Virus record (IMG/VR): IMGVR_UViG_3300035228_001973
Location: 32,001 to 96,000 of that record
DNA from: a virus
Lineage: Duplodnaviria; Caudoviricetes
Strand: one strand, 5' to 3'
Length of the DNA: 64,000 nucleotides
The notes beneath the pieces are model-generated. The model was not told the DNA's origin. It searched no databases and was given only the letters and a program-made list of their open reading frames with translations. Positions 6,401 to 53,648 of this stretch are shown one piece after another. The stretch's first letter is position 1; every line of letters begins with the position of its first letter. Position numbers and translations under genes: made by a program.

Positions 6401-8752
6401 ACCTTGAGCTCCTTGGTCAGCGATTATTCCTTGTGGTCCTTGTGGACCAAGTAATCCTTTTCGACCTTTTAAACCTTTAAGACCTTTATCACCTTTATTA
6501 CCGGTCGGACCTTTATCGGATTGAGGACCTGTTGGCCCTACGTCTCCTTGGCTAGCTATTAGACCTTTGATACCTTTAATACCTTTAAGACCCTTATTAC
6601 CTCTTTGACCCTTTAAACCTTTTTCACCTTTATCAGTAGAAGTATTACCTCTACCCCCATTTGGACCTTGGTCTCCGTCAGTCCCTATTTGACCTTTAGG
6701 TGAACTACCTATGGAACCATCAGGTCCTTTAATTCCTTTTGGTCCAACAACACCAACTTCACCTTTTGGTCCTTTTAAATTACCAACAGGTCCATCAACA
6801 CCCACGGGTCCTTTTTCACCTATTATACCTTTTGTCCCACCATCGGTATCAGGTCCCTTCGCTCCTTTAAGTCCTTTTAACCCTTTTAAACCTTTTAATC
6901 CTTTAGTTCCTTTATCATCACCAACAATTCCTTTATTACCTTCATCACCAGTTTCACCTTGTTGTCTTAGAAAAGACGTTAAAGCATTTGTAACAACGGA
7001 TTCAGTAAAATTATCAACAGTAGGGTCAACATCAAAACCAAAATGTTTTAGACCTGGACCATTTTTAAAACTACTTTCTAAATTTGTATAACAAGTTTCA
7101 GACGAAAGAGAAGAATAAACATTTGTCGTTATTAACGCACTTAAATTTAAATTCTCAGGACCAACTGAAGTTATGTTATCACCATATCTATTTAAAAACT
7201 CATTACTAGTGATGGTACTACCCTCAATTGCTGCTACTGCATGTTGAACAAACGCATAAGTTGAAGTACCTCTAAGTGGGTTTACAACTGGATAAACTAA
7301 ACCTTGAGCATTACCCCCTCGATTACTTTTTATATCTTCATATACTTGAACATATGAACAGTAATCGTGTAAATACCTATTTGTATATTCATCACCTGCA
7401 TTATTATTCCAATAATTACCATTCAATTCAAATGGTTTATTAAATAAGTCACTCTTAGTGGCGTTGGTTGGTGTTCCACCTAACTGTCCATGATATAGAC
7501 CAACAATACCGTCTGACTCATCCGCAACAATAATTACCAAATAGTTAGTATTATCACCACCAAATGAACCTTGTCCTGATGTTTCTGTATTATTTAAATT
7601 ACTATGGTCAAAAGGTACACCCTGAGATATGGATTCAGCTGCACCTGTATCTAAATTAACACCTCTGTTAATTCTTCTGTATATTGTTTCACCATCATTA
7701 AATTGTGAATTTCTTGGTACACAATTACCACCTGAATTAGACTGACAATAATCAGATTGATAAGTTGCGTTAGGTACCGCACTATTAAATTCACTCAATG
7801 GTGTTCCGTCACTCAATGTACCCCCACTGAGTGAACCAAGATATGGATAGGATGCCCACCATAACCAGTTTTCACCGTTATTATTGTTTTTACCAATTAC
7901 GCCCTCGTATAATTTATTAATATCACCATCACCATTTACTGTTTGGAACCAATCTCTAACACTCTGAGAGGCTTCTTTAGCTTTATCACTTGGCATCGAT
8001 GTCGCGTCATAGAAAACATAAACATCTACATTTGAGGTAATCCCAATTGGTCCTTGAGGTCCTTTTACACCTACTTCACCCTTGGGTCCAATCTCACCTT
8101 TATTTGTACCTGTTGGTCCTTGGTTACCTTTACTGGCGGATAATCCTGTAGGTCCTTTTAGTGAATCACCAATTAAACCTTTTATACCTTTATTACCTTT
8201 GAATCCTTTAAATCCTTGTGTACCTATAGACCCCTTTAATGAGTCAGGACCCGCAGGTCCGATTACACCTTGTGGGCCTATTTGACCTTTAATTCCCACG
8301 GGACCTAATGGTCCTGAGACATCCTTCTCACCTTTGATACCTTTTAACCCTTTAGTTCCTTGTTCACCTGTTGGTCCTTGTTCTGTAGAGGTTATACCTT
8401 TTAATCCTTTTTGACCTTTTAAACCTTTTTCACCATCACCATCTCTATTACCTTTAAGACCTGTCGGTCCCTGAGGTCCTTGAACACCAGTGGGTCCAAT
8501 CATATTCATAGGGTAACCTTTCCAATTACCTGAGTTATCAATTAATTCATCACTATTCTGTTTCTTTACTGAAACAGACGGCATAAACTTCATATTATCT
8601 AACTCTAAACTTGAAGTGATTTTAAAATCATTACCTAAGTGTGTGTTAAAATTCAATTCTCCGCTACCATATGCTATATTAATCATACTAGCATTAGTAC
8701 CTGAAAAATTAATTGTACCTCCTGTTGGATTTATTTTAATGTCTCTACCCAT
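3455..8752 (-). CDS. Collagen-like fibre protein 2 with inserted vWA-like domain, Cys-rich tip and C-terminal peptidase S74 intramolecular chaperone
   Basis: 1765 aa. Long GxK/GPQ/GPT repeats, a globular insert (VYVFYDATSM...LVIIVADESD), a Cys-rich segment, then SSDERMK...GMIAQEI..IYPEVV...Y. Confidence 0.92.
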   Translation of the reverse strand: MGRDIKINPTGGTINFSGTNASMINIAYGSGELNFNTHLGNDFKITSSLELDNMKFMPSVSVKKQNSDELIDNSGNWKGYPMNMIGPTGVQGPQGPTGLKGNRDGDGEKGLKGQKGLKGITSTEQGPTGEQGTKGLKGIKGEKDVSGPLGPVGIKGQIGPQGVIGPAGPDSLKGSIGTQGFKGFKGNKGIKGLIGDSLKGPTGLSASKGNQGPTGTNKGEIGPKGEVGVKGPQGPIGITSNVDVYVFYDATSMPSDKAKEASQSVRDWFQTVNGDGDINKLYEGVIGKNNNNGENWLWWASYPYLGSLSGGTLSDGTPLSEFNSAVPNATYQSDYCQSNSGGNCVPRNSQFNDGETIYRRINRGVNLDTGAAESISQGVPFDHSNLNNTETSGQGSFGGDNTNYLVIIVADESDGIVGLYHGQLGGTPTNATKSDLFNKPFELNGNYWNNNAGDEYTNRYLHDYCSYVQVYEDIKSNRGGNAQGLVYPVVNPLRGTSTYAFVQHAVAAIEGSTITSNEFLNRYGDNITSVGPENLNLSALITTNVYSSLSSETCYTNLESSFKNGPGLKHFGFDVDPTVDNFTESVVTNALTSFLRQQGETGDEGNKGIVGDDKGTKGLKGLKGLKGLKGAKGPDTDGGTKGIIGEKGPVGVDGPVGNLKGPKGEVGVVGPKGIKGPDGSIGSSPKGQIGTDGDQGPNGGRGNTSTDKGEKGLKGQRGNKGLKGIKGIKGLIASQGDVGPTGPQSDKGPTGNKGDKGLKGLKGRKGLLGPQGPQGIIADQGAQGPVSQDGEGADKGLKGLKGLKGLKGKKGIDGTKGPQGPTSQGNELGPTGEKGQRGPQGDKGNKGYKGLKGKKGVKGPKGPKGLIASQGDGGPQGPTGPVADQGNKGLKGLKGNKGFKGLKGLIGPQGNKGLKASQGPTGPQGPVSTKGDKGLKGIKGLKGLKGPQGVKGQKGYKGLKGVTGDKGLISTSTGDKGIKGQKGFRDTDGDKGIKGQKGYKGPQGGRGTTSTVKGLKGLKGIKGLRADDGLKGSKGLIGIKGPQGPQGGRGTTTGGSGDTGPTGPGGPAAFKGLKGVKGYKGPKGPQGPKGTQSTDTGLTGPTGLGGPTAYKGLKGQKGIKGAFGPKGPIGSATGAKGPKGFVGPTGPVASKGIKGFKGPKGYKGPKGPKGPTTGAVGPTGPTGPVALKGYKGLKGPKGPKGYKGPLGPQGTTTGTVGDKGPQGAQGGGGLLADKGLKGPKGYKGPKGPQGLQGPQSGPTGPTGAGGPAAFKGIKGPKGPKGYKGPLGPQGNSSTVKGYKGPKGAKGLISSKGDKGFKGLKGPKGALGPQGPQGPQSGPTGPTGPGGPAAFKGYKGPVGPTGYKGVGGQQGPTSTDRGAQGPQGGSSAVKGPKGPRGPQGLQGGGGPRGPQGAGSTSPGPIGPTNTQNGPTGFKGQKGRKGLIGPRGPQGPKGSQYTKEGSVGPQGPRGAQSTVKGYKGPIGGQGPLGPTGPKGYKGLKGPQGRDGKDGPQGPAGKEGPQGPTGQKGPQGPQAAGGAVGDKGFKGIKGPKGPTASSCFSHTILLRREGDCSICDGKQEPCGSGAQLTLYSPTSGQFTNSSYLYTNNTCTVCNNLATFCKAARSGLYTIWDGGLSSGSMFHWAANGGNCSLSECGECRSSDERMKLGIKTIGDSLNKLLKINVTEYDWNEKYSGYDFLKERQKLHSIGMIAQEINLIYPEVVYRRDDGYLAIKYYKLNSLIIEAIKTHQVFIEDIGEQINWLRTQID

Positions 8753-11700
8753 TTAAAATTTTTGATTTTAATATATTAACCCTATCTTTTATACTTTCAA
8801 TACGTGTATGTTGTTCTTGTATAGAACCAATACCAATGGCTACTAATTTACCGTAATCAAGTTTTAAATAACCACTCTCACTATTAAATACAACTTCAGG
8901 TATTACTTTTTGAATATCTTGAGCGATAAATCCGTAATCATCACCTACACTACCATCAAACTTAGTTGCTCCACCCTTCCATGTAAACTTAACACCATTA
9001 ATTAATTTTAACTTACTTAAATTACCTTTTAGAGATTTAATGTTATTTTTTAATCTTTTATCAGACGCAGGACCTTGTGGACCTTGTAGACCTTGTAGAC
9101 CTCGTGGACCTTTTGGACCTGTCGGTCCACCCGTACCTGTTGGGCCTTGCGGTCCCTTTATACCCTTATTACCTTGGTCACCTTTAGGGCCTTTGAAACC
9201 TATTGGACCATCCGCACCTGTTCCACCTTGCGGTCCTTGGAATCCTCTCGGACCTTTTTTACCTTTAACTGTTGAGGTAGCACCTTGTGGTCCTTGTAGA
9301 CCCCTCTCTGTACTTGCTGGTCCTGTTGGTCCACCCGCACCTGTTGGACCTATAATATTACCTGTGGGCCCTACAGGTCCCGTAAATAAAGATTGAAAAC
9401 CCTGTGGCCCTTGTGGTCCACTTGTACCTTGTGGTCCTTTAATTCCTTTATGACCTTTAATTCCTTTTAAACCTTTTTCTGTACTTGTTGGTCCTGTTGG
9501 TCCACCTGGTCCTGTTGGTCCACCTGGTCCACCTCCACCGCCCGGACCTCCACTACCTGACAAACCTCCGGGTCCTGTTGGTCCTTGTGGTCCCTTTATT
9601 CCTTTAAAACCTTTTGGCCCTTTATCTGTAGATTGGGCTCCTCTTAATCCTTTTGGCCCTTGTGGCCCTCTATTTCCTTTAGGTCCTTTAGGTCCTTTAG
9701 GTCCCTTAAGTCCTTTTGATGTACCGATAAAACCTTTAACACCTTTATCTGTAGATTGTGCACCTTGTGGTCCTTGTGGTCCTTTACGACCTTTAATTCC
9801 CTTGTTACCATCCGCACCTGTTCCACCTTGCGGTCCTCTTACACTACTAGCTGGTCCTTGTGGCCCTTTAACTGTTGACTCGGTACCTCTTGTTCCACCA
9901 GAACCTTGTGGTCCTCTATTTCCTTTTGGACCTTTATATCCTTTTGGACCTTTAAGTCCTTTTGCTCCACTAGTAGCCCCTATGAATCCTTTTACCGTTG
10001 AATCAGTACCTCTTGGTCCTTGTGGACCTTTAATACCTTTTAAACCTGTTGGTCCTTCTGGACCCTTAACCCCTTTTTGTCCTTTAGTAGAATTAGTTGG
10101 TCCTTGTGGTCCTTGAACTGATGAATTGGCACCTCTTGGTCCGCCAGAACCTTGTGACCCTATACCACCTCTAGGTCCTTTTGGTCCTTTAAAACCTTTA
10201 GGTCCTTTAGTAGAATTAGCGGGTCCTTTAAATCCTTTTACTGTTGAAGTTGTTCCTCTTGCCCCTTGTGGGCCTTGTACACCTAATGGTCCTTTTAGAC
10301 CTTTAAGCCCTTTTGGCCCTTTAAATCCTTTTTCAGTATTATTTGGACCTTTAGCACCTTTTACTGTTGAAATAGTACCTTGAGCACCTCTTGGTCCATC
10401 ATTACCTCTTGGACCTTTAGGTCCCTTATAACCTTTCTGACCTTTAATACCTTTAGTTGTACTAGTAATTCCTTTATAACCCTTTACTGTAGATGTCAAA
10501 CCAATGGCTCCTCGTGAACCATTAGGTCCTCTATTCCCTTTTAATCCCTTTAAACCTTTTAGACCTTTATGTCCTTTAGTATTATTAGTTGGTCCTTGTG
10601 GACCTGTTGGTCCACCTGCGGCTTGACTACCTTGAGTACCTTGTGGTCCCTTTTGTCCTTTATCTGTAGATTGTGGTCCGTTTGGTCCTTGATTACCTAT
10701 CGGTCCTCTATCAGTACTTGCTGGTCCTTGTGCTCCTTGAGCAGCTTGAGTACCTCTACCACCTTCTGGACCTTTTTGACCTTTATCTGTTGAGGTTTTT
10801 CCTCGTTGACCATCTGGACCCTTAAGTCCTTTTTCGGTGGATTGTGGTCCTCTATTTCCTTTAGAGGATGACACACCAGTACCACCTCTATTTCCTGTTG
10901 GTCCTTGTGGTCCTTTACCACCTTGTGCACCCGCACCACCTTGAGTTCCTCGACTAGGTTTAATACCTTTTAAACCTTTTTGACCTTTAATTCCTTTATC
11001 TGTAGATGTTGGACCTTGTGGTCCTTGGTCACCCTGTGGTCCTTGGTTACCTACAGTACCCGTACTTGATTGTGGTCCTTGTGGTCCAATAGGCCCTTTA
11101 GGTCCTTCAATACCCTTTAAACCTTTAGGTCCCTTAAGTCCCTTATCGGTTGAAGTCGTACCTCGATTACCTTTATTACCTAAAGATGCCCCATTACCTG
11201 TTGGTCCTTGTAGACCTTGTGAATTTTTAGGACCCTTTAATCCTTTATTACCTTTAAGTCCTTTAAGACCTTTAAATGGTGTTGGACCAACTACACCTTT
11301 TATACCTTTGTCACCTGTTGACGCTATATTTCCTTGGTTACCAATACCTCCTTGACCACCAAGTGGTCCTCTGACACCTTTAATTCCTTTAATACCTTTT
11401 AGACCTTTTTGACCTTTATCGTCACCTTTAGGTCCTTGTGGACCAGTTGGTCCTTGTGAGGCTTGTATACCAATACCTCCTTGAGTACCTCTATTAGGTT
11501 TTAAACCTTTTACACCCTTTATACCCTTTAAACCTTTTTGACCTTTAATTCCTTTATCGGTTGAGGTATTTCCTTGTAATCCTTGTGGTCCTTGTGGTCC
11601 TTGAATAGTTGTACTGGCTTGAGGCCCTTTAAATCCTTTTGGCCCTTCTAACCCTAATAGACCTTTAAGACCTTTATCGCCTTTATAACCTATAGGTCCT

Positions 11701-12722
11701 TGAGTACCAATCGGACCTTGTTGACCATTGTCTCCACTAACGGCAACTAAACCTTTGTGACCTTTTACTCCTTTAATACCTTTTACCCCCTTAAGACCCT
11801 TAACCCCTATAAGACCTTTTATACCTTTTTGCCCTGTTGGACCTTTTGGTCCTATTGGTCCTTGTGAACCGACACTGGCTATAGGTCCTTGAAGACCTTG
11901 AGTACCCACTAACCCTTTAGGTCCTTTAGTACCCTGTATACCCTTAAGACCTTTAAGACCTTTATCGGCTACATCTCCTGATTGTGACACCGGTCCTTGT
12001 GGACCAAGTAAACCTTTTTGACCTTTTTCACCTTCAACACCTTTAACACCTTTAGGTCCTTGTATTCCCTTTAAACCCTTATTACCTTTGTCACCAACAA
12101 TACCTTTATCTGAATCTGAACCTTGTGTACCTATAGGTCCTTGGCTCGCCTTTATACCAACGGCACCTTTAATACCTATCTCACCCTTAACTCCACGATT
12201 ACCTTTATCACCTTGTGGTCCTACTTCTGTAGATGTTGGCCCTTGGATACCCTTTAATCCTTTATCTCCACCAGTCTGAAACGTCCAACTGGTACCAATA
12301 GTACCTAATCTACCTTTTAGACCCTTTAACCCTTTTCTACCTTTATCTCCTTGTGGTCCATTAGTAGTTGAACCTCTACTTCCCGTAGGCCCTTGTGGTC
12401 CTTGTATTCCTTTTATACCCTTATCCCCGTCAACACCATGATTACCTTTTAGCCCTTGGGTACTACCTTTCCACCCACCAGTATCTGTAATTGACATAAC
12501 ACCATTAAATCCAACGTCATTACCTAAAATCATTGAACCTTTGATATTAACTCTATCCTCATCAATAACCACTAAGTTATCTCCATGAGTTGCACCTGAA
12601 AATGTTAACGTACCATTATCATGGACATTTAATGAAATTAAGTCACCATTTGTGTTCTCAAAAATAATATATGGAATTGTTGTACCTGTGGGTTTTGGTA
12701 CTATTATAATGTTTTTAGCCAT
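8745..12722 (-). CDS. Collagen-like fibre protein 1 with C-terminal peptidase S74 intramolecular chaperone
   Basis: 1325 aa. An N-domain of about 90 aa, roughly 1100 aa of interrupted Gly-X-Y, then SDKRLKNNIK...GFIAQDIQKVIPEVV...LDYGKL. Confidence 0.93.
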   Translation of the reverse strand: MAKNIIIVPKPTGTTIPYIIFENTNGDLISLNVHDNGTLTFSGATHGDNLVVIDEDRVNIKGSMILGNDVGFNGVMSITDTGGWKGSTQGLKGNHGVDGDKGIKGIQGPQGPTGSRGSTTNGPQGDKGRKGLKGLKGRLGTIGTSWTFQTGGDKGLKGIQGPTSTEVGPQGDKGNRGVKGEIGIKGAVGIKASQGPIGTQGSDSDKGIVGDKGNKGLKGIQGPKGVKGVEGEKGQKGLLGPQGPVSQSGDVADKGLKGLKGIQGTKGPKGLVGTQGLQGPIASVGSQGPIGPKGPTGQKGIKGLIGVKGLKGVKGIKGVKGHKGLVAVSGDNGQQGPIGTQGPIGYKGDKGLKGLLGLEGPKGFKGPQASTTIQGPQGPQGLQGNTSTDKGIKGQKGLKGIKGVKGLKPNRGTQGGIGIQASQGPTGPQGPKGDDKGQKGLKGIKGIKGVRGPLGGQGGIGNQGNIASTGDKGIKGVVGPTPFKGLKGLKGNKGLKGPKNSQGLQGPTGNGASLGNKGNRGTTSTDKGLKGPKGLKGIEGPKGPIGPQGPQSSTGTVGNQGPQGDQGPQGPTSTDKGIKGQKGLKGIKPSRGTQGGAGAQGGKGPQGPTGNRGGTGVSSSKGNRGPQSTEKGLKGPDGQRGKTSTDKGQKGPEGGRGTQAAQGAQGPASTDRGPIGNQGPNGPQSTDKGQKGPQGTQGSQAAGGPTGPQGPTNNTKGHKGLKGLKGLKGNRGPNGSRGAIGLTSTVKGYKGITSTTKGIKGQKGYKGPKGPRGNDGPRGAQGTISTVKGAKGPNNTEKGFKGPKGLKGLKGPLGVQGPQGARGTTSTVKGFKGPANSTKGPKGFKGPKGPRGGIGSQGSGGPRGANSSVQGPQGPTNSTKGQKGVKGPEGPTGLKGIKGPQGPRGTDSTVKGFIGATSGAKGLKGPKGYKGPKGNRGPQGSGGTRGTESTVKGPQGPASSVRGPQGGTGADGNKGIKGRKGPQGPQGAQSTDKGVKGFIGTSKGLKGPKGPKGPKGNRGPQGPKGLRGAQSTDKGPKGFKGIKGPQGPTGPGGLSGSGGPGGGGGPGGPTGPGGPTGPTSTEKGLKGIKGHKGIKGPQGTSGPQGPQGFQSLFTGPVGPTGNIIGPTGAGGPTGPASTERGLQGPQGATSTVKGKKGPRGFQGPQGGTGADGPIGFKGPKGDQGNKGIKGPQGPTGTGGPTGPKGPRGLQGLQGPQGPASDKRLKNNIKSLKGNLSKLKLINGVKFTWKGGATKFDGSVGDDYGFIAQDIQKVIPEVVFNSESGYLKLDYGKLVAIGIGSIQEQHTRIESIKDRVNILKSKILNG

Positions 12723-14353: not shown

Positions 14354-14722
14354 TTATATTGTTTTTAAATTTTTATAACTTCTTAAAAAGAAAATCATAC
14401 TGTCTGATGATTCTTCTTTACAAATCGTATAGAACTTATAAGTATTTTCGTCCTTCCTTTTAATGAAATATAAGTAATTAAAAGTTTCCGAAAACCTTAT
14501 AAGACCTTCTTTTAATATTGCTTGACCACCATTAAAGAATTTGTGTGACCAAATAATCTCATTTTTTTCTAACATTCGGTTTAAAGCCTCATGAGTGTAA
14601 AACTCAGTTTCAATAACTGTTGATAAAGTATGAGTACCTTTACCAATTAGATTATTAACGTGAGTTAATACTTCTTTAGGTAAAAGATACTCTTCTTTAT
14701 TATTTTGGTTATTGTTTTCCAT
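14354..14722 (-). CDS. Hypothetical protein
   Basis: 122-aa ORF tightly packed in the operon. Confidence 0.7.
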   Translation of the reverse strand: MENNNQNNKEEYLLPKEVLTHVNNLIGKGTHTLSTVIETEFYTHEALNRMLEKNEIIWSHKFFNGGQAILKEGLIRFSETFNYLYFIKRKDENTYKFYTICKEESSDSMIFFLRSYKNLKTI

Positions 14723-15858
14723 TACTCGGTTTCTCTTTCTAATGGTTCAGTCAAAACCATTTCTTTAACTTCATCACTTACTTTCACATCGCTATACATA
14801 TTATGTAAAGTTTTATATAACTCTTCAGAATTAATAATCGATTCATTAATAATATTAATTATTCGATAAGGGTCAGCATTTGATGCGGGTCTTCTATCTT
14901 CAACATATCCTTTCCATTCTTTTTCCGTTGATATTGGGACTCTAATAGATGCACCTCGGTCAGATACTCCCCAACTAAACTTATGTATTGATTGTGTTTC
15001 GTGGTCACCCGTTAATCTCATATCATTAGATGAACCATAACACTTAATATGTTCCATATGTCTCGATTCAAATGTCTTAAATATAGCATCAAAATATTGT
15101 TTTCCACCTTCTTCTCTCATTTTTGTATTTGAAAAATTACAATGTAATCCTGAACCATTCCAATCACCAGTAACAGGTTTAGGGTGATATTCAATATTAA
15201 ACCCATAGTCCTCAGACATTTGATTTAATATGTATCTTGAAACCCACAAGTCATCACCTGACTTTAATTTACCTTTACCTAATACTTGATATTCCCATTG
15301 ACCTAACATTACCTCAGCATTTGTACCTGTCACCTCAATTCCCGCCATGATACAATTTTCCATGTGTTGTTCAACAAAAAGTCTACCATTAACTTGACCA
15401 TTACCCACACCACAATAGTATTTACCTTGTGGTTCAGGAAAACCATCTTTAGGGAAACCAATCGGTTTTCCATCTTTCATAATGGTATATTCTTGTTCAA
15501 ATCCAAACCATAAATCAGTTTCGTTGTCATCACCTATTAGCGCTCTAGTGTTTGAATCGTGTGGTGAGCCGTCAGGATTGAGTACCTCACAAAACACAAG
15601 ATAAGAATCCAACACTCCTTTATTAAGTGGGTTAGGGTATAACCTAACAGGATTTAAAGTACAGTCCGAAAAATTACCTTCAGCTTGTTTAGTGGAAGAA
15701 CCATCAAATCCCCATTGAGGACAATCATTTAATGAAACTCCGTGTAGTTTCTTACCTTTTACTTCATGTAATTTAGCGTCTACTACTTTTACCTTACTTC
15801 TTAGGTTTGGTTCAGGACTATACCCGTCCAACCATATATATTCTAACTTTATCTTCAT
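14722..15858 (-). CDS. glnII: Glutamine synthetase type II
   Basis: EYIWLDG, FDGSST, GFEQEY, NAEVMLGQWEYQ, DWNGSGLHCNFS, DRGASIRVP and EDRRPASN motifs. Confidence 0.95.
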   Translation of the reverse strand: MKIKLEYIWLDGYSPEPNLRSKVKVVDAKLHEVKGKKLHGVSLNDCPQWGFDGSSTKQAEGNFSDCTLNPVRLYPNPLNKGVLDSYLVFCEVLNPDGSPHDSNTRALIGDDNETDLWFGFEQEYTIMKDGKPIGFPKDGFPEPQGKYYCGVGNGQVNGRLFVEQHMENCIMAGIEVTGTNAEVMLGQWEYQVLGKGKLKSGDDLWVSRYILNQMSEDYGFNIEYHPKPVTGDWNGSGLHCNFSNTKMREEGGKQYFDAIFKTFESRHMEHIKCYGSSNDMRLTGDHETQSIHKFSWGVSDRGASIRVPISTEKEWKGYVEDRRPASNADPYRIINIINESIINSEELYKTLHNMYSDVKVSDEVKEMVLTEPLERETE

Positions 15859-17589: not shown

Positions 17590-17618
17590 ATTATAATCAT
17601 AAAAAAAGAGGTAGTCAA
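17590..17618 (-). promoter_or_regulatory. Sigma70-type promoter TTGACT-N17-TATAAT
   Basis: The + strand has attata at 17590-17595 and agtcaa at 17613-17618, with a 17-nt spacer. Confidence 0.6.
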
Positions 17619-17638
17619 CCTACCTCTTAATTTTTTTT
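17601..17638. terminator. Intrinsic terminator hairpin
   Basis: aagaggtag-tcaac-ctacctctt flanked by A and T tracts, directly after the 17642 gene. Confidence 0.7.
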
Positions 17639-17641
17639 ACC

Positions 17642-19330
17642 TTAAAATGGTAAATCGATATTACCTATGTCATCAATTTCATCTTCATTATCCCACCTAA
17701 GAATAACCCCATCGTATTTAGACTTTCTGGTAATAATCCTACCACTTCTATAAACTTTAGAAAGTTCAGGTGTTTTTAATGTATCACTTCGATATAGTGA
17801 ATTTATCTTATCGTCTAAAATTTCTAATATTGTGTCCCACATAGGAGTTAATTTACTATTTTTACTACCAAGTGATTGCACTCTTTTTAATGTGTTACCG
17901 ATAAATCGATATTCTATCGTAGCCCGTAGTTTACTATCTTTACTACCAACCCTCAATGAAATAATAATATTATTTGGGTTTTCAACATAAGTTCTAACAC
18001 AATTCTTTTGAGTTTGTGACTCTTCATTGTAATCGTTGGTAGTCATCAATACTTTAGGATAATACTCGACACCCACTAAATCGGTAACACTACCTTCAAT
18101 TAAGCTTGTAACTCCGTCCCCATAATATCTAGTTACCACACCTTTCCTATACGATTGTAGTAGTTCAGATACATCATAGTGTTCATTATTAAATTGTTCA
18201 ATATCTTTAAATTTAACTTTAAACTTATGTCCGTGTTTATCTTCTAATTCTTTAACCATGTTAAAGTGTTCGATAAGTGAATGTAGGTTTAATCCGTCAT
18301 TTAAAACATTAACAATATTTTGTTTATGAAAATTACTCGTCTCTAAATTGACTTTTTCAACTTTAAAGTTTGAGGAAAAATGAAGATTACTTTTAACAAA
18401 TACACTACTATTAACTTTGTTAAAGTAATCCACACCAAGTAAAGTATACACTTTATTTAAGACTTCAAAATCTAAATCATGACCGACATTTAAAATCTTA
18501 CGAATTTTTCTACCATTTAATTCATTAACATTCATATATAAAGAAACTAAATTGGTTTGTTTTCTTAATAATTTTTTAGGTATCGATAACTGAACATATT
18601 CTCTATAGTTATTAGGGTATTTAAATTTATTGGTCTCCAAATATAGTTGGAAAAATTTAACCTCATAATCTTTACCTCTTATATCTTTATTGACACCACA
18701 TCTTTCTTTAATTCTACTTAAAAAAATATCCATAATATCGTTAGAGTGCTCACACCTATCGCTATATTTCTTTGTAACCTGCCATGAAAGTTTTGAGTTT
18801 TCTTTAGGGACTCTTTTAGAAAAGTTATTGTTACGTAATTCGTTATCTCTTAAATGTCTCCTTATTTCTAAATTTAAAGAACTAAAAACATGTCCGTTGA
18901 AGTCATTAACTCTAACTTTTTTACTTAATATTTTTTTATTTTTTTTACTTATTGTGCCCGAATAAAAATTATTGTATTTAAAATTATATGTTATGTAGGT
19001 GAGGTATTTTCGAACCCTAAAATAGGATGACCCGACTCTTCTAATTCTTTCAGTTTGATATACCTTACATGAAATTTTATTAGGATACTCTTCAACAACT
19101 ATAGTTACTTTTTCTGAACTAACCTTAGATACCGTATTACCGTAATTAGATTTGAATTCTTCCTCGGAAACTTTATCGGTTTCTAATTCTGCCCAACACC
19201 CATATTTATTTTCATTTAATCTTTTAGTGTATTCTCTGACAGAATTATCACCTATCTCATTATACGTATGGTATTTAGTAACCAAATACGTATCAATAAC
19301 TTTTTTATAATGTAATGTTTTTTTATCCAC
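17642..19330 (-). CDS. PcfJ-domain protein
   Basis: C-terminal EESQTQKNCVRTY...IISLR...RATIEY...QSLG..N pattern. Confidence 0.7.
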   Translation of the reverse strand: MDKKTLHYKKVIDTYLVTKYHTYNEIGDNSVREYTKRLNENKYGCWAELETDKVSEEEFKSNYGNTVSKVSSEKVTIVVEEYPNKISCKVYQTERIRRVGSSYFRVRKYLTYITYNFKYNNFYSGTISKKNKKILSKKVRVNDFNGHVFSSLNLEIRRHLRDNELRNNNFSKRVPKENSKLSWQVTKKYSDRCEHSNDIMDIFLSRIKERCGVNKDIRGKDYEVKFFQLYLETNKFKYPNNYREYVQLSIPKKLLRKQTNLVSLYMNVNELNGRKIRKILNVGHDLDFEVLNKVYTLLGVDYFNKVNSSVFVKSNLHFSSNFKVEKVNLETSNFHKQNIVNVLNDGLNLHSLIEHFNMVKELEDKHGHKFKVKFKDIEQFNNEHYDVSELLQSYRKGVVTRYYGDGVTSLIEGSVTDLVGVEYYPKVLMTTNDYNEESQTQKNCVRTYVENPNNIIISLRVGSKDSKLRATIEYRFIGNTLKRVQSLGSKNSKLTPMWDTILEILDDKINSLYRSDTLKTPELSKVYRSGRIITRKSKYDGVILRWDNEDEIDDIGNIDLPF

Positions 19331-19334
19331 ACCA

Positions 19335-19342
19335 CAAATGTA
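19335..19342 (-). promoter_or_regulatory. Bacteroidota -7 promoter element TACATTTG
   Basis: Matches TAnnTTTG, 4 nt before the GTG at 19330. Confidence 0.55.
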
Positions 19343-19371
19343 ATTAAAATAAAGTAATAAAAAAAGAGGAA

Positions 19372-20802
19372 TTAAATTATTCCTCCGTAGTAATTAGTAT
19401 TCGATATTTGTATTTGATAACCTTGTTTATTTAGGTTATCACACATTAATATATCCCAATCATCGTGACTATATTTTTCACTATCCACGTAAAGCGAACT
19501 AACACTAAAGGGTATTAAATCATTTTTTATTATATGAATACCATATATTATATCTACATCCCAAATACCTTTCTTAATATATTTTTGATATTCTTTTTTA
19601 TTTTTAGATTCAAAATTAACCCATTCACTACCCTCCTTATTAATCATTGGACTAATAATTCCCTTACATTCATTAATTAGTAGTTGAATAGATTTAATAT
19701 TTCTAAATATATGGTTAGACTCCATCATAATGACATAGTCAGCCTCGTCATAAGATTCAATAAGAAAATTCTTTCTTGATATAATTTTATTACTATTGGT
19801 ATGTGTTATTTTAAAACTTTTAAATATATCCGAATACTTTTCTTTGAACATATTAACTTTGTACTCATGTTTACTATCCCCATAAATTATGTGAAATGAA
19901 GTCTTATCTTTTGGATAATTCAAAAACCTGATATGGTCAAAAGTTTGATTAATATCTAACACCTTCTCATCTAAAAATAAACCAATTAATATGTCAGATT
20001 CATTAGTGTCTTTTTTGATTTTATCATTATTAGTAATAAAAGAATCTACCTCTCTTTTATCAAATATTTTTTCATAGTAACCATTTAAAGTATTTTTCAC
20101 TATACTACCACCATTTGCGTGTATTATTAGTGGTGACTCATTAGTTACAGTATTTTTAATAATACCATCTTCAACAATAATATCTTCTAAAGATTCATTC
20201 ATAGTTTGAAATAAGAATTGGTTATAATCTAATATAGTACCTTGATTACCTTTTAGGTCTTCAAAAAACCTTTCAGTATAATATAATTGGTCATCGTATT
20301 CATTATTAACCGAAACTTTATTAATCAACTTTGATATGTGGTCACCATAACCAATAAACCCACCTGAATTTAAATATCTGTAGTCGGTAGGTGATTTTGG
20401 GTATTGTCCCTTTAAACTTTCATCTGGCCAACATGTTTTTTCAGCTGAGAATACTATAGGTGATTCCATCTTTCTAAACCTACTAACTATCTCTTCTGAT
20501 GAACCATTAATAATAACATCATATGAGTCAGTAAAAAGTATAATATGATTACCTAAATCAGGATAATCCAATAACTCTTCTTTAAGTAAATTTATTTTTT
20601 GTGAACCACCTGGTTTAAGTAGTACCCCATTTTTGGCTTCACCACCTGTCCATTCTTGACCTAACCCTAAAATTTTATATGGTATATCATGATGATGACA
20701 AGACTCCCTAAAACGGACTAATTCTTCGTTTTCTTCTGTAGCAACAGTAATGACCATAAATTTGTCAATACCATCACTATAATTATTATCTCTAAAATAC
20801 AC
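19372..20802 (-). CDS. PLOD/LH3-like collagen glycosyltransferase (GT plus accessory domain, no hydroxylase domain)
   Basis: VITVAT, LGLGQEW.GG, GGSQK, FTDSYD, FSAE..CWP, YLNSGGFIG, DDQLYYT and HANG occur in the same order as in the PLOD GT domain. ILIGLFL...LNYPKDK then resembles the PLOD accessory domain. Confidence 0.9.
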   Translation of the reverse strand: MYFRDNNYSDGIDKFMVITVATEENEELVRFRESCHHHDIPYKILGLGQEWTGGEAKNGVLLKPGGSQKINLLKEELLDYPDLGNHIILFTDSYDVIINGSSEEIVSRFRKMESPIVFSAEKTCWPDESLKGQYPKSPTDYRYLNSGGFIGYGDHISKLINKVSVNNEYDDQLYYTERFFEDLKGNQGTILDYNQFLFQTMNESLEDIIVEDGIIKNTVTNESPLIIHANGGSIVKNTLNGYYEKIFDKREVDSFITNNDKIKKDTNESDILIGLFLDEKVLDINQTFDHIRFLNYPKDKTSFHIIYGDSKHEYKVNMFKEKYSDIFKSFKITHTNSNKIISRKNFLIESYDEADYVIMMESNHIFRNIKSIQLLINECKGIISPMINKEGSEWVNFESKNKKEYQKYIKKGIWDVDIIYGIHIIKNDLIPFSVSSLYVDSEKYSHDDWDILMCDNLNKQGYQIQISNTNYYGGII

Positions 20803-20879
20803 TGATTAATTAATTAGTTGTTTATTTCATTTAGAAAATAAATCATTAAACAAATAAATAAAGGGATAAAGAGGGGTTA

Positions 20880-21167
20880 TTAGTTTAAACAAAACATTCC
20901 AAATTTAGTTTTTTGAAATATTTGACTATCAGAATATGAATTATCAACTTCTCTAATTTTATTTAGTTTGATGACAATGTCCATTATTTGTTTGTGTGTA
21001 AGTTGTAATTCATCACCACTATCGTGATTATCATGAATAGTACTATATACCTCGTTAAAAAAATCTCGTTCGGATGCATTACCAATTAACTTTATAAGTT
21101 CAGTTGGATTTTCTAAAAAGAAGGTTTTAAACTGTGAAAAATATATTTCAATATCTACATTACTCAT
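20880..21167 (-). CDS. Hypothetical protein (start revised to MSNVDIE)
   Basis: ATG 21167 lies downstream of a TACCTTTG element. Confidence 0.7.
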   Translation of the reverse strand: MSNVDIEIYFSQFKTFFLENPTELIKLIGNASERDFFNEVYSTIHDNHDSGDELQLTHKQIMDIVIKLNKIREVDNSYSDSQIFQKTKFGMFCLN

Positions 21168-21196
21168 CTTAAATGTTTTTTTATAAAAATTAACTA

Positions 21197-21204
21197 CAAA
21201 GGTA
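21197..21204 (-). promoter_or_regulatory. Bacteroidota -7 element TACCTTTG
   Basis: TAnnTTTG match upstream of the unit containing 21167 and the PLOD-GT gene. Confidence 0.6.
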
Positions 21205-21219
21205 AAGTTTTTCGATAGA

Positions 21220-22551
21220 TTATTTAAAAACTTTAATACCTTTGTCTTCAATCATTTTTTGAACTTCTTCAGGGATGTCAATATTAGGATTAGACCCCGC
21301 CAATGTAATAACCGCTAAATTTTTCATCTTATAATCATTACCATTTTTTTCAGCCATCTCTTTTGGTAATGACTTTAAGTTTTTATTATTAGGTAAAGAT
21401 AAAAACATCAAGTCCTCTAAGTTTGAAATTTCTGATGGTAATTCATCTAATATTCCATCAAGGTGTAAAGCATACATGTTTTTAAACCTACCGATACTAC
21501 TTGGTATCTTTATATTTAAATCTTTTGCGGATTCCTGCCCGTATCTACCGCTACCACTTGTTTTAATAAAGTCTAATCTACCTAAGTTGTCTGGTAAATC
21601 GTCAAAGAACTTATCAAAACCATATAAAGCAATAAATTTAGATGCAGCATCTCTAGGGTACTCTACCGAAATTTCTGTACCATCAGCATTAGATAGTCCT
21701 TTCATAAACTCAGGTTTAAAGAATTGTTTCAAACCTTCTTCCTCACCTAATAAAAAATCAACTAAATTGATTTGTCTATCATTAACATCCATAAATTGGT
21801 TACTAGGGAAGTGAAATTGGTACCTGTGTTTAGGTAACCCTGATATATCACCCACTTCCGTATCGGTCTTATCAACTAAAACATAAAGTGGTCCTTGTTT
21901 GATATATGTATTAAAGTAAGATAACCCCGGTGCGGATGTACACCATCTTGTCTCTTTATTTTGACCACCATAGAAACATGCCGCCTCTTTACCTAAATCC
22001 CCCTGGTCTTCAATCATGTAAACGTCATATTTACTACCTGAGTATACCAATTCAGCACCCGGATGAACTTTCATTTCTTTTCGTTCAGCCTTAGTGGTAC
22101 TCGCCTTCTCTAAACTAAAATCTTTAACAGTATTAAATAAACTATCAATAGTTAATTTATTAATATCTCTTAATTCATCATCAATTTGACTTTTAAATCT
22201 GTCAAACTTAATAAGGTCATCAGTTGTTTTGTATAAATCTTCAAAAAATAAATCTGTTTTTTCTTTAAATTCTTTTTTAAACTGTGGTGTTCCGTATGAT
22301 GCCTCAATATTCGGCTCAATTTGTAAAAATTGTTTAATAATCCAGTTTACATATTTACCAGCCTTTTTGATATTATCACCGTCTCTACGAGTGGTTGGGT
22401 CAGTCATCACCATTTTATTAAGTTGTTCAAGTGACATCTTCGCCGGCTTAACTTTCTCACCTTTCTTTTTAGGTTGAGTATAAGTCTTCTTCAGAATCTC
22501 GTAACGACCCTGCTCGACTATAATACTTTTTATAATGTTATTAAACTTCAT
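21220..22551 (-). CDS. Late protein with a WCT-motif domain and C-terminal leucine-rich repeats
   Basis: TRWCTSAPG..YF..Y...GPLYV motif; LRRs IPSSIGRFKNMYALHL, LPSEISNLEDLMFLSL and LKSLPKEM. Confidence 0.7.
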   Translation of the reverse strand: MKFNNIIKSIIVEQGRYEILKKTYTQPKKKGEKVKPAKMSLEQLNKMVMTDPTTRRDGDNIKKAGKYVNWIIKQFLQIEPNIEASYGTPQFKKEFKEKTDLFFEDLYKTTDDLIKFDRFKSQIDDELRDINKLTIDSLFNTVKDFSLEKASTTKAERKEMKVHPGAELVYSGSKYDVYMIEDQGDLGKEAACFYGGQNKETRWCTSAPGLSYFNTYIKQGPLYVLVDKTDTEVGDISGLPKHRYQFHFPSNQFMDVNDRQINLVDFLLGEEEGLKQFFKPEFMKGLSNADGTEISVEYPRDAASKFIALYGFDKFFDDLPDNLGRLDFIKTSGSGRYGQESAKDLNIKIPSSIGRFKNMYALHLDGILDELPSEISNLEDLMFLSLPNNKNLKSLPKEMAEKNGNDYKMKNLAVITLAGSNPNIDIPEEVQKMIEDKGIKVFK

Positions 22552-22568
22552 AAGTCTATTTGTTTTCT

Positions 22569-22576
22569 TATAAATA
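22569..22576 (-). promoter_or_regulatory. TATTTATA putative late promoter
   Basis: 17 nt upstream of ATG 22551. Confidence 0.6.
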
Positions 22577-22611
22577 TATCAGAAATTAAAAATATTCTAT
22601 TTTTATATGGG

Positions 22612-23994: not shown

Positions 23995-24171
23995 ATGTCA
24001 AAAGAATACAATGTTAACTCAATAGAAATAAATGAAAAAAAAGATTGTAAAGCGTGCTCAAAAGGATTAAATATTGGTCAAAAGTTTATAATATTATTTT
24101 CTTTTTATATGTTAGGGACAAGTATATATGGAACTGTTAAGTTAATACAACTTTTAATTAATTTATTTTAG
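23995..24171 (+). CDS. 58-aa CxxC plus TM protein (not in the ORF track)
   Basis: [58 protein letters not shown]; fills an otherwise empty gap. Confidence 0.6.
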
Positions 24172-25113
24172 TAAATCCTTTAATTTTACCTTATCCTCAT
24201 CACTAATAGACTTGTTAGTTACACCCACTTTTATATAGAAATCTCCAATTCCACTTTGAGTGACAAATCCTTTAGATTTTACTCTTAGTGGTTTTTCTGT
24301 ACTTAAATTTTTAGGTAAATTTATATCTAAATCCCCATCAGGATGAGACACTCTAAACGTTTTATTTATTATCATTTCTATAGGGGTTATATTTAAATTA
24401 AAAACTAAATCTTTACCCACCTTCTCGTATTTACTTTTAATCATATTAATTTGAACTAATAAGTCACCTTGAATGTTATTTAGATAATCACCTTTACCTG
24501 CGGCTCTTAAGAAATCACCACTATCAACTCCTTTAGGTATTGATACCTTTAAATTTTTAAATTTATCAATAGACCCCGAACCATTACAATTTAAACAAGG
24601 GTCAACAACCATTTGTCCACTTCCTCTACAAGTATGACACGGAGTATCCACTGTCTGTGTGAAAAAACCTGTACCCATTTTTTGTCTAATAAAACCTCTA
24701 CCGGCACAAGTTGTGCATGTATTTTTTTTACCACCAGTACCAACACATAATTCACATGAAATCTTAGATTTATAAGTTATCTCCTTTTCAATACCGACAA
24801 ACGATTCTTCAGGTGTTAAAGTTACTCTTATTACTTTATCTTTAATTTTAGGTTTAGTTGACCTTCTTTGTTGATTAAACATATCAAAAGGATTACCACC
24901 GAATTGACCACCGAAAGGATTAGGATTATCGTATTGCTTTCGTTTTTTTTCATCACTTAAAGTTTCATAGGATTCGACTATATCTTTAAATTTTTCTTCT
25001 CCCTGAGGGTTTACATCTGGGTGATATTGTTTACTTAATTTCCTATACGCTTTTTTAATCTCACTTTGAGATGCGTTTTTATTAATATTTAAAATTTGAT
25101 AATAGTCCTTCAT
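24163..25113 (-). CDS. dnaJ: DnaJ chaperone
   Basis: J-domain with HPD, four CxxCxGxG repeats and a C-terminal domain. Confidence 0.95.
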
Positions 25114-33075: not shown

Positions 33076-33885
33076 CTATAAGTAATCAAATAAAGTAGAG
33101 CTTTCGTTACGTAATTTACGTAAAGCCTTTTCTTTAATTTGTCTAACTCTTTCTTTAGTTAGACTAAAATCACCCCCAATATCTTCAAGTGTTCTTGGTG
33201 TGCCTGTTAACCCGTAATACTCTTCAACAATATTTCTTTCTCGGTCATCAAGTACTGACATAATACCAAATAACCTATGTTTTAACTCATCTGCCGTGTT
33301 AAAACCTTCATCGGGTTGTACTGAGTCCACATTCTCAAGTAAATCAATTAGAGTGTCCCCCTCATCATTAATAAAGTTATCTACTGACGTTGTTTTGGGT
33401 AGACTTGTAAATTTAGAATCTAATTCAGTATTTGTCTTTTGAGCGACTTTTTTAGCTTTATATAAATCTTGAACAACATTAACAGGTAATCTAATCGTCC
33501 TTGAGTTTTCATTAAGAGATTGTAAAATAGATTGTTTAATCCACCAAACAGCATATGATATAAATCTGAGTTTTTTTGTCCAATCAAAATTTTTGATTGC
33601 CTTCATTAAACCGTAGTTACCCTCAGCAATTAAATCTGACATATCTAACCCTTGATTTTGATATTGTTTTGCGACCGTAATAACAAACCTAAGATTACCT
33701 TCTAACAATTCTTTATGAATTTCGTCTCTTTGTTTTTGTGTACAGTCATTCGAACACATTATATTCGATAATTCTTTTTCTCTTTCGGGAGTCATGACAT
33801 CGATTTGTCTTAAGTCTTTTAAGTACATTTGAATGTCATCTTGATTTAATGTGTACATACTGTTGTTGTCTCTAATTTCTCGCAT
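33076..33885 (-). CDS. RNA polymerase sigma factor, RpoD/SigA family (Bacteroidota-like, lacking region 1.1)
   Basis: NLRFVITVAKQYQNQG, DLIAEGNYGL, RFISYAVWWIKQSI and TKERVRQIKEKALRKLR motifs. Confidence 0.95.
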   Translation of the reverse strand: MREIRDNNSMYTLNQDDIQMYLKDLRQIDVMTPEREKELSNIMCSNDCTQKQRDEIHKELLEGNLRFVITVAKQYQNQGLDMSDLIAEGNYGLMKAIKNFDWTKKLRFISYAVWWIKQSILQSLNENSRTIRLPVNVVQDLYKAKKVAQKTNTELDSKFTSLPKTTSVDNFINDEGDTLIDLLENVDSVQPDEGFNTADELKHRLFGIMSVLDDRERNIVEEYYGLTGTPRTLEDIGGDFSLTKERVRQIKEKALRKLRNESSTLFDYL

Positions 33886-36746: not shown

Positions 36747-37604
36747 TTATTTTACTGAATTAATATAATCCTCTATTAAATGTCTTGGTTTCCAATTTAA
36801 AATCTCCTCAGTATCAGTTTTAAATTCCTCACTAACAAATCTTTCTCCTCGTCTTTTAGGTATAAATTCCCATTCCCCAAACATCTCAGCTATCTGTATT
36901 ATAGTATGATTAACACCACTTCTAAGATGCCACTCATGGTTTTTACTCTCTTCACTTATCAGCATTAACCCGTCCACAATATCACCAACATGTGTAAAAT
37001 CTCTCTGTTGATTACCTGGCTCAACAACCGTTAAATTTTCCCCATTATTATATTGTCTTTCAAATATACCTATAACAGTCGCGTAATCACCATCAGTTAT
37101 TTGACAAGGACCATAAACATTATAAAAATAAACAATTTCATAATTTAAGTCGTACCACTTACCATAATTTTTGATTAATTCAACCATCTTAGCTTTAACC
37201 CAAGAATAAGGGGATAAGTTTTCATCTTCACCATCATTTCCAAACTTTGATGATGATGCCGAATAAATTAACTTACTACCCCATTGTTTACACTTTTCAA
37301 TTAACTTAGATGTTGAATATAAATTAGTCTCAATAAGGTAATCAACATCATCAAAAGATTTAACTATTCTTGAATATTCACCAAAGTGATATACGACATC
37401 GGGAATAATACCCCCACCACTATCGATGTAATCATTAACTGATATGTCTACGTAAGTCACATTTGGCGAATCAATATGATTTTCTTTTTTACCTGTAAAA
37501 TAGTTGTCAACAGAGATTACTTTATAACTAGGATACTTATTAACTATACTTTTTATTAGGTTAGAACCGACAAAACCTGCACCCCCTGTAACTAATATGT
37601 TCAT
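36747..37604 (-). CDS. NAD-dependent nucleotide-sugar epimerase/dehydratase (extended SDR)
   Basis: MNILVTGGAGFVGS, YSASSS, SPYSWVK (YxxxK), NVYGP and RDFTHV motifs. Confidence 0.92.
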   Translation of the reverse strand: MNILVTGGAGFVGSNLIKSIVNKYPSYKVISVDNYFTGKKENHIDSPNVTYVDISVNDYIDSGGGIIPDVVYHFGEYSRIVKSFDDVDYLIETNLYSTSKLIEKCKQWGSKLIYSASSSKFGNDGEDENLSPYSWVKAKMVELIKNYGKWYDLNYEIVYFYNVYGPCQITDGDYATVIGIFERQYNNGENLTVVEPGNQQRDFTHVGDIVDGLMLISEESKNHEWHLRSGVNHTIIQIAEMFGEWEFIPKRRGERFVSEEFKTDTEEILNWKPRHLIEDYINSVK

Positions 37605-37605
37605 A

Positions 37606-53605: not shown

Positions 53606-53648
53606 GTTTTATAAATAGTTTTATTATCTAATTTTTTATTTTTTTTAT

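Follow-up and report, generated by a model that had tools for sequence, protein, structure and literature searches.

The locus and the GT-AC protein

The stretch of DNA analysed here, which we call the window, comprises 64,000 nucleotides and corresponds to bases 32001-96000 of IMGVR_UViG_3300035228_001973, a linear IMG/VR viral record of 119,041 bp. It contains a gene for a protein, here named GT-AC, that resembles the glycosyltransferase (GT) and accessory (AC) domains of the collagen-modifying PLOD enzymes. Two genes for separate lysyl hydroxylase (LH) domains, LH1 and LH2, lie in the same window, as do three giant collagen-like fibre genes, A, B and C (Table 1). Two related viral records that are collinear with this one, G007 and G008, are used throughout for comparison.

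Table 1. Positions of the genes and domains discussed. Numbering is that of the window, except where "genome" denotes the whole record.
Feature	Position	Strand	Length (aa)	Basis or remark
GT-AC, stand-alone homologue of PLOD/LH3 GT and AC domains	19372-20802	-	476	Uninterrupted open reading frame (ORF), GTG start
GT (catalytic GT-A) domain of GT-AC	20059-20766	-		Residues 13-248; Pfam envelope, motifs, model
AC domain of GT-AC	19375-20004	-		Approximately residues 267-476, C-terminal end ...NTNYYGGII; LH3 alignment; second Rossmann-like domain in model
LH1, stand-alone LH-domain 2-oxoglutarate (2OG)/Fe(II) oxygenase	47542-48177	-	211	Matches to the LH domains of LH3 and L230
LH2, divergent paralogue of LH1 (25% identity), directly upstream of it	48321-48932	-	203	LH3 LH-domain match
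Collagen-like fibre gene A	1-3455 (whole gene: genome 31490-35455; 3' end beyond window)	-	1321	Pfam Collagen E 1.4e-81
Collagen-like fibre gene B	3455-8752	-	1765	Pfam Collagen E 5.2e-94, Peptidase_S74 E 2e-10
Collagen-like fibre gene C	8745-12722	-	1325	Pfam Collagen E 4.6e-83, Peptidase_S74 E 6.3e-14
Third, more distant LH-like 2OG oxygenase ORF	genome 1047-1670	+	207	E 3e-12 to LH1 (phmmer)
PF11397 "GlcNAc" transferase gene	genome 99023-100291	-		E 3e-64
HtrL/YibB-like GT gene	genome 95721-97391	-	556
GT11-like gene	genome 24960-25922	-	320
Two NAD-dependent sugar-nucleotide epimerase/dehydratase genes	36747-37628; 39537-40442	-
Very large non-collagen proteins	57169-63666 (-); genome 107528-118350		2165, 973, 1607, 988	phrog_15511, tail-fibre-like matches, SprB repeats
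Shadow ORF on the opposite strand	59507-61966		819	Strong local GC skew
Auxiliary genes unusual for phages (glutamine-synthetase-like, full DnaJ, sigma-70, pyridoxal phosphate-dependent cysteine-synthase-like enzyme, sulfatase)	14722-15858; 24163-25113; 33076-33885; 45809-46684; genome 9156-10769

The GT_PLOD family (PF25342) matches residues 13-248 of GT-AC with an E-value of 5.3e-72, at 242.4 bits against a cut-off of 27 and over profile positions 3-241 of 246. The best match in the Protein Data Bank (PDB) found with phmmer is human LH3 (6fxk and others, E 6.4e-58), to which residues 13-475 align end to end over chain residues 14-492, that is, the GT and AC domains, and the same method places residues 13-474 on residues 11-456 of the mimivirus protein R699 (9dyt, 458 aa, E 1.9e-42). 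An AlphaFold model of GT-AC contains two well-folded domains, with a mean predicted local distance difference test score (pLDDT) of 86.3, joined by a disordered linker at residues 249-266 (pLDDT <50); its predicted template modelling score (pTM) is 0.53 and the orientation of the domains relative to each other is unreliable. Foldseek ranks LH3 first for this model (E 1e-43) and R699 next (E ~1e-37). The GT domain of the model superposes on the isolated human galactosylhydroxylysyl glucosyltransferase domain (6wfv) with a target-normalised TM-score (TMt) of 0.89 and a root-mean-square deviation (rmsd) of 1.9 Å over 231 columns, at 38% identity.

Five motifs that the first-pass annotation, made from the sequence alone, had reported as retained can all be located in GT-AC: DSYD at residues 92-95, CWP at 124-126, NSG at 145-147, DDQ at 170-172 and H-A-N-G (HxNG) at 228-231. 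In an alignment of 23 stand-alone GT-AC proteins, which share 29-96% identity with the query and among which is the R699-like protein P0212, we found W51, K69, D92, D95, E121, C124, W125, P126, N145, S146, G147, D170, D171, Q172, H228 and N230 to be invariant in every row. D92-x-x-D95 and H228 are predicted to bind Mn2+, while K69, E121, W125, N145, D170, D171, Q172 and N230 are predicted to serve sugar or acceptor binding. The three Mn2+ residues, kept in all 23 rows, presumably correspond to D112, D115 and H253 of LH3, in a numbering whose offset of +23 from the chain numbering was checked against the structure entry for Val80Lys. In R699 the mutation of K62, E114, W118, N138, D162, D163, Q164, H216 or N218 abolished activity (PMC12279948). 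The counterparts in GT-AC, mapped by equal spacing and through P0212 rather than from the sequence of R699 itself, are K69, E121, W125, N145, D170, D171, Q172, H228 and N230, all of which are invariant. Equivalents of LH3 Trp145, Asp190 and Asp191, residues named in PMC9546862, are also kept.

There is no LH domain on the GT-AC polypeptide, as the ORF ends after the AC domain and the hydroxylase is encoded by a separate gene 27 kb away. The description of the gene in the first-pass annotation as a stand-alone PLOD GT plus accessory protein with an intact active site therefore agrees with the Pfam assignment, the LH3 and R699 matches and the fold. On the strength of these comparisons GT-AC is very probably an active PLOD-type UDP-sugar transferase, predicted to be retaining, to depend on Mn2+ and to work without an attached hydroxylase domain.

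Separate hydroxylases and collagen-like fibres

LH1 aligns with chain residues 501-713 of LH3, which form its LH domain (E 2.4e-28), and with the LH domain of mimivirus L230 (6ax6, E 2.1e-23). It exceeds the Pfam cut-offs for both the OGFOD2-like family PF25238 (33.2 bits, cut-off 31) and 2OG-FeII_Oxy_3, PF13640 (29.4 bits, cut-off 27), and thus has the PLOD-type N-terminal module (PF25238) as well as the double-stranded β-helix fold. The model of LH1 (pLDDT 89.3, pTM 0.88) superposes on the L230 LH domain with a TMt of 0.88 and an rmsd of 1.8 Å, and on LH3 with a query-normalised TM-score (TMq) of 0.85-0.87. The iron triad and the 2OG-binding Arg are complete (H142, D144, H190 and R200), and we take them to be the counterparts of LH3 H667, D669, H719 and R729, a numbering that agrees with the LH1 alignment. 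H142, H190 and R200 are kept in 19 of 19 LH1-type rows and D144 in 18, the remaining row (P0343) having Glu.

When GT-AC and LH1 are tiled onto LH3, residue 475 of GT-AC falls on chain residue 492 and residue 7 of LH1 on chain residue 501, and the gap between them is an eight-residue linker. The first-pass annotation had placed the end of GT-AC (ISNTNYYGGII) at the point where PLOD proteins join their hydroxylase domain, and the start of the gene at 47542 where that domain begins; the two alignments put both boundaries at these points. It had overlooked the second hydroxylase, the three collagens and the tailed-phage genome. Co-folding of the AC domain (residues 250-476) with LH1, run without controls, gave a score of 0.01 against a mark of 0.32, which we count neither way.

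LH2 also has the LH domain of LH3 as its best PDB match (query residues 5-199, E 2.9e-7), with both of its Pfam scores below cut-off. It keeps H135, D137 and R193. The column of the distal iron ligand holds Tyr in all seven LH2-type rows, whereas it holds His in all 19 LH1-type rows and also in LH3 and L230-type enzymes, and LH2 retains a His (His181) two residues before this tyrosine. As judged from these substitutions, LH2 could be a pseudo-enzyme partner of LH1, or could use His181 as a shifted ligand. Counterparts of the third LH-like ORF of the record exist in G007, and the one in G008 is more distantly related.

The three collagen-like genes stand in tandem 6.6 kb from the GT-AC gene. 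Intramolecular chaperone domains of the S74 type, known from phage tail fibres and spikes, end genes B and C, and the C-terminus of gene A resembles the S74 region of gene B (E 1e-12), giving all three an S74-type chaperone end. Lys is the commonest residue at the Y position of the Gly-X-Y runs, occupying it in 88 of 284 triplets in A, 139 of 303 in B and 113 of 278 in C (31-46%), while Pro is found at X and not at Y. X-Lys-Gly is the classical lysyl hydroxylase site, and 342 G-x-K-G sites are present across the three genes, 137 of them in gene B. The collagen genes have a GC content of 0.42, against 0.32 for the remainder of the record; their repeats also give rise to long shadow ORFs on the plus strand.

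The same trio occurs in G007 and G008, with Lys in 36-51% of the Y positions, and collagen matches were found in five of five related viral records. GT_PLOD relatives of differing architecture are encoded at 37 viral loci whose flanks (<=10 kb) were retrieved, and at 24 of these loci the flanks include a collagen-like ORF, a count in which some loci are duplicates, so that the 24 are not independent cases. From the composition and company of these genes, we consider it probable that the phage collagen fibres are the substrate of the pathway to which GT-AC belongs.

The GT25 question and the proposed pathway

CheckV estimates the record to be 41% complete, which implies a genome of ~290 kb. G007 (169 kb, 56% complete) is collinear with it, 98 of 122 ORFs matching at a median amino acid identity of 79.5%, as is G008 (297,164 bp, 99% complete), with 91 of 122 ORFs and a median of 55.7%. 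The record itself encodes a sigma-70 factor, DnaJ, Dam methylase, SbcCD, a DnaG-type primase, phage lysozyme and endolysin. Because Terminase_6N was not found in it, the phage hallmarks were taken from G008, which has a portal protein (phrog_213, E 4e-67) and a baseplate wedge protein (E 3e-18). Together, the phage-type genes of the record and the portal and baseplate genes of its collinear relative identify the source virus as a jumbo tailed phage of bacteria.

G007 and G008 each hold three collagens, a GT_PLOD gene, LH1, LH2 and a stand-alone gene of the GT25 family. The LH pair is present in two of the five related viral records, the other three being short fragments. The catalytic residues are unchanged in the GT-AC orthologues of both relatives, including the syntenic G008 protein (52731-54611), which has 626 aa, with an insert of ~140 aa after about residue 196 of the GT domain. 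Related proteins of 685-699 aa are also found (P0046-P0097), the 692-aa forms carrying precomputed methyltransferase Pfam domains; the insert-bearing forms would be GT domains interrupted by another enzyme domain.

No GT25 was visible to the first-pass annotation, and a search for PF01755 likewise gives 0 matches in the window, in the whole 119,041-bp record and in five of five close fragments. The annotation had gone on to suggest that the sugar may be added directly to hydroxylysine. We find that this suggestion has lost its basis, since the record is a fragment covering ~41% of the genome and the collinear G007 and G008 carry GT25. Stand-alone GT25 proteins of 249-254 aa, above the PF01755 cut-off, are encoded at 148.6 kb in G007 and at 236.4-237.2 kb in G008, and their sole PDB match is COLGALT1 (E 2e-8). 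Position 1 of the record corresponds to ~91 kb in G007, and the GT25 gene would be expected ~58 kb outside the record, past its left end. Identity between the G007 protein and the GT25 portion of P0032 is ~30%; P0032 is one of three GT25-GT-AC fusions (P0031, P0032 and P0034) that are 49-57% identical to the query and nested in its clade. The record under study thus has LH, GT-AC and collagens without GT25, while all four components are present in G007 and G008, and the absence of GT25 is, judging from this synteny, best explained by truncation of the record.

The alternative that GT-AC puts the first sugar straight onto hydroxylysine (Hyl), for example forming Glc-Hyl as is reported for L230, with no galactose step, nevertheless has a precedent. 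In PMC9546862, L230 is described as a hydroxylysyl glucosyltransferase that forms peptidyl Glc-Hyl, and the lack of a GT25 in the record and its close fragments would fit such a reaction. L230-like proteins, however, bear an N-terminal COLGALT1-like GT25, so that their reported direct activity cannot on this evidence be assigned to the GT_PLOD domain, and R699, which has the architecture of GT-AC, was active on Gal-Hyl while Glc-Hyl collagen yielded no signal in the assays described in the same paper. With the GT25 genes of G007 and G008 and the fusions nested in the query clade also speaking for a galactose step, we regard direct transfer to Hyl as unlikely.

We favour instead, with a probability of about 0.6, a pathway in which Lys residues of the fibres are hydroxylated, then galactosylated by GT25 and finally glucosylated by GT-AC. 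The three giant trimeric collagen-like fibres would be made first, and trimerised and folded by their C-terminal S74 chaperones. LH1 would then convert Y-position Lys to 5-hydroxylysine, with LH2 perhaps assisting as a partner. Galactose would be added by the stand-alone GT25, a protein of the collagen galactosyltransferase (ColGalT) type encoded in the part of the genome outside the record, and GT-AC would transfer glucose from UDP-glucose onto Gal-Hyl in the manner of R699 and human LH3. In the end, the virion would bear collagen fibres that are heavily O-glycosylated. Taken by itself, the assignment of glucose transfer onto Gal-Hyl to GT-AC, which depends on the comparison with these homologues, has somewhat better than even odds. 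The pathway as a whole is built on computed homology, on the active-site residues that are retained, on where the domains begin and end, and on the gene content, its synteny and the presence of collagen genes alongside, and from these we infer the substrate, the donor sugar, in what order the steps proceed and where on the virion the fibres sit.

Several observations weigh against this pathway. The GT25 is placed in this virus by synteny with G007 and G008 and is not in the record itself. Donor and acceptor would be carried over from homologues, R699 and LH3, that are ~27% identical over the whole protein, and in the phmmer alignment, read by eye, LH3 Val80 and Trp92 are replaced by Ala56 and Leu72. 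There is no operon-level link between the components: GT-AC lies 27 kb from the LH genes and, in the relatives, >100 kb from GT25. LH2 is without the canonical distal His, its Tyr183 occupying that iron-ligand column 10 residues before the 2OG Arg. GT-AC is 62.7% identical to its G007 orthologue compared with a genome median of 79.5%, which may reflect exchange or faster evolution. The reported glucosylation of Hyl by L230 suggests that direct glycosylation is possible for this fold (PMC9546862), and R699 is also reported to make free kojibiose.

The last of these points, together with the presence of GT-only homologues in cyanophages, bears on a further explanation, in which the target of GT-AC is not collagen at all and the collagens are coincidental. 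The target could then be modified phage DNA bases, host lipopolysaccharide or capsule, or a free sugar as in kojibiose synthesis. Phages often glycosylate their DNA, as is generally known, and the record has a thymidylate-synthase-family gene, several methyltransferase genes, other GTs and NDP-sugar dehydratase/epimerase genes. GT-only relatives with 27-32% identity occur in Synechococcus and Roseobacter phages. Against such targets stand the co-occurrence in this lineage of GT+AC, PF25238-bearing hydroxylases, collagens with Lys at Y and a COLGALT1-like GT25 (the last in G007 and G008 only), the collagen-like ORFs close to 24 of the 37 viral GT_PLOD loci, and the invariance of the acceptor-side residues E121 and W125. 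We therefore consider a non-collagen target quite unlikely, and retain the sequence of hydroxylation, galactosylation and glucosylation of the fibres as the preferred account.

The unfused state, its relatives and its meaning

PLOD-type enzymes are found in many domain arrangements. A search of 1.84 billion proteins at E <= 1e-3 gave a family of 2,638 representatives. We retrieved 262 GT- or AC-containing proteins and assigned their architectures by a crude probe-based procedure, which gave 125 GT-AC, 53 GT only, 22 GT25-GT-LH, 17 GT25-GT, 16 GT-AC-LH, 7 GT25-GT-AC, 7 GT-GT25, 6 GT-LH, 4 GT25-GT-AC-LH, 4 AC only and 1 LH-GT. A tree was built for each half of the split enzyme, as the first-pass annotation had proposed. 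Both are quick IQ-TREE reconstructions, unrooted and supported by the Shimodaira-Hasegawa-like approximate likelihood ratio test (SH-aLRT) only. The GT-AC tree contains 73 of 158 eligible rows, namely all eligible representatives from the large search plus a hand-picked set, with four rows dropped whose regions exceeded 520 aa. The LH tree contains 77 rows: 29 hand-picked from 141 stand-alone proteins (from length-limited searches), 46 fused and the two query proteins.

In the GT-AC tree 22 animal PLOD rows lie on one side and a microbial and viral group of 50 rows on the other (SH-aLRT 99). This latter group holds both the query clade and the L230/R699-like clade. The query clade has 22 rows (SH-aLRT 91; 100 for the inner 18), which are 18 stand-alone proteins, the three GT25-GT-AC fusions and the query, none of them with LH. 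A separate clade of 24 rows holds the L230/R699-like proteins, among them P0212, and GT-AC is not in this clade. In the LH tree, LH1 and LH2 fall in a group of 34 rows (support 92) that comprises 29 stand-alone proteins, the two query proteins and three fused ones (P0257, P0263 and P0238) that lie inside this mostly stand-alone group, while the L230-like and animal LH domains form the other group of 37 rows. We saw no incongruence between the halves, and an unrooted tree of three major groups could not reveal any.

The first-pass annotation had offered a clean fission or an unfused ancestral state. Both halves do sit among mostly unfused proteins, and the split state is, on these trees, old and common to the whole clade rather than the product of a recent fission. 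The direction of the change is not given by unrooted trees, which are, as far as branching order goes, compatible with a primary unfused state and with an ancient fission alike.

A recent capture and split of a fused PLOD gene from a eukaryote or a giant virus, possibly decaying and without coordinated function, would explain why the break maps exactly to the AC/LH linker of LH3. One related record (G004, 94% identity) has its GT-AC frame in three ORF pieces (locus L009, 9998-11434), which may point to a pseudogene or to an error of sequencing or assembly. Neither half is nested in the animal or L230-like clades, though, and the stand-alone state is common to homologues down to ~35% identity. 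All catalytic residues are invariant, and the GC content of the genes (0.27-0.33) fits that of the genome outside the collagens (0.32). The GT-AC gene is near-identical in many marine metagenomes, and contigs of close relatives, from four marine metatranscriptome libraries (four studies), map to positions 17600-22600 with identities of 90-99%, one of 946 nt spanning 19378-20323. These RNA-library contigs are compatible with expression of GT-AC, and are a weak hint since DNA carry-over is possible. We regard a recent split as very improbable, and the long-standing unfused state as the better description of this clade.

In its domain content GT-AC is very similar to R699 (PDB 9DYT, 9DZS and 9E92), an assayed and crystallised Gal-Hyl glucosyltransferase that consists of stand-alone GT and AC domains (PMC9546862 and PMC12279948). 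Both lack LH and GT25, their lengths are 476 and 458 aa, and both viruses also encode collagens. They differ in that they share only ~27% identity, that P0212 belongs to another clade together with L230-like fused proteins, that R699 comes from an amoeba-infecting giant virus rather than a tailed phage, and that the mimivirus hydroxylase is fused (L230) while that of the phage is unfused. Human LH3/PLOD3, like PLOD1 and PLOD2, matches GT and AC end to end, and LH1 corresponds to its C-terminal LH domain; the whole-protein identity of animal PLODs to GT-AC is 29-32%. Where LH3 is a single three-domain chain, the phage has two or three polypeptides whose genes lie 27 kb apart, and GT-AC has no signal peptide or endoplasmic reticulum context and a poly-Asp run reduced to two Asp.

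L230 (LH domain 6AX6, 9NEV) is, like LH1, a viral collagen lysyl hydroxylase on whose LH domain LH1 superposes, and the same four activities or domains are present in L230-like proteins and in the phage lineage. In the L230-like protein P0197 (899 aa) they are fused as GT25-GT-AC-LH, whereas the phage lineage has four separate genes, and LH1 and LH2 lie outside the fused-LH group of the tree. COLGALT1/GLT25D1 (9EVJ, 8ZGC) is the sole PDB match of the stand-alone GT25 of G007 and G008, which differs from it in having one catalytic domain only. Among 50,697 deposited phage records we found matches to the GT domain only (about residues 13-250), with identities of 27-32%. In none of the 11 records concerned does the match extend over >=80% of GT-AC, and no AC domain was found in them. 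These relatives, from cyanophages S-PRM1, S-CAM9, S-8S53 and others and from Roseobacter phage CRP-6, are annotated as hypothetical protein or 2OG-Fe(II) oxygenase in the cultured phages. Bacterial 2OG hydroxylases of other families were predicted to modify collagen-like proteins by Iyer et al. 2010 (PMC2938197).

Further searches concerned the host and relatives of the phage. Megablast of window positions 12800-37000 against the deposited phages gave no match, and tblastn with the SbcC-like protein gave distant matches only, at <=29% identity, with no named relative or host. No tRNA genes were found in the window or its flanks. A scan of genome contigs with the GT-AC alignment returned four loci only, three on contigs of metagenome-assembled genomes (29-32% identity) and one match of 21 residues, from which no host could be inferred, and a scan of viral contigs with the GT25-GT-AC fusion P0032 confirmed no relative. 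A protein with SprB repeats in the record is no more than a hint towards a Bacteroidota host. For GT-AC, LH1, LH2, the GT25 of G007, the PF11397-type GT and the GT11-like GT, no NCBIfam model was found.

The record holds three more GT-like genes. PF11397, to which one of them belongs, is presumably the family of the Skp1 hydroxyproline GlcNAc-transferase, which also acts on a hydroxylated amino acid; this gene and the HtrL/YibB-like gene are conserved in G008 (78% identity). The additional GT genes may extend or replace steps of fibre glycosylation. The two epimerase/dehydratase genes were considered as a source of UDP-Gal and rejected, as the better of them is nearest to dTDP-glucose 4,6-dehydratase and not to GalE. 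The gene at 39537-40442 scores 304 bits with the model for that enzyme, under the equivalog cut-off of 365, and its sequence suggests that the phage also makes deoxy-sugars. The very large non-collagen proteins are probably further fibres or adhesins.

Glc-Gal attached to hydroxylysine is seen as a distinguishing mark of animal collagen, mimivirus being the known exception. R699 already provides an example of the stand-alone GT-AC architecture and of its activity, and the GT-AC protein alone is a further member of a family with a solved, assayed stand-alone example. The setting, in which a tailed phage with giant fibres rich in Lys carries the tool-kit in fully unfused form, appears to be unreported, and our literature search found no publication that describes collagen in combination with a PLOD-type GT or LH encoded by a phage. 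We put forward as a tentative and rather doubtful proposal that marine tailed phages, inside the bacterial cell and on their own giant collagen fibres, convert Lys to Hyl, Gal-Hyl and Glc-Gal-Hyl as animals do, with four separate enzymes of one function each, LH2 being a non-catalytic or altered partner, and that this unfused pool in phages and bacteria was the source of the fused L230-type and PLOD-type enzymes found in giant viruses and animals.

Should a family of marine phages of ~300 kb indeed carry out this chemistry, the pathway would work in the bacterial cytoplasm with small, separable enzymes. Bacteria cannot yet be used to produce recombinant glycosylated collagen, a bottleneck named in the R699 paper (PMC9546862). 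The origin of PLOD would become testable through unfused GT-AC, LH and GT25 and through fused intermediates (GT25-GT-AC, GT25-GT-AC-LH and GT-AC-LH), and whether a lysyl hydroxylase dimer requires both of its active sites could be tested on the naturally occurring LH1/LH2 pair. Fibres that offer hundreds of sites for potential glycosylation would give the virion a surface of a new kind.

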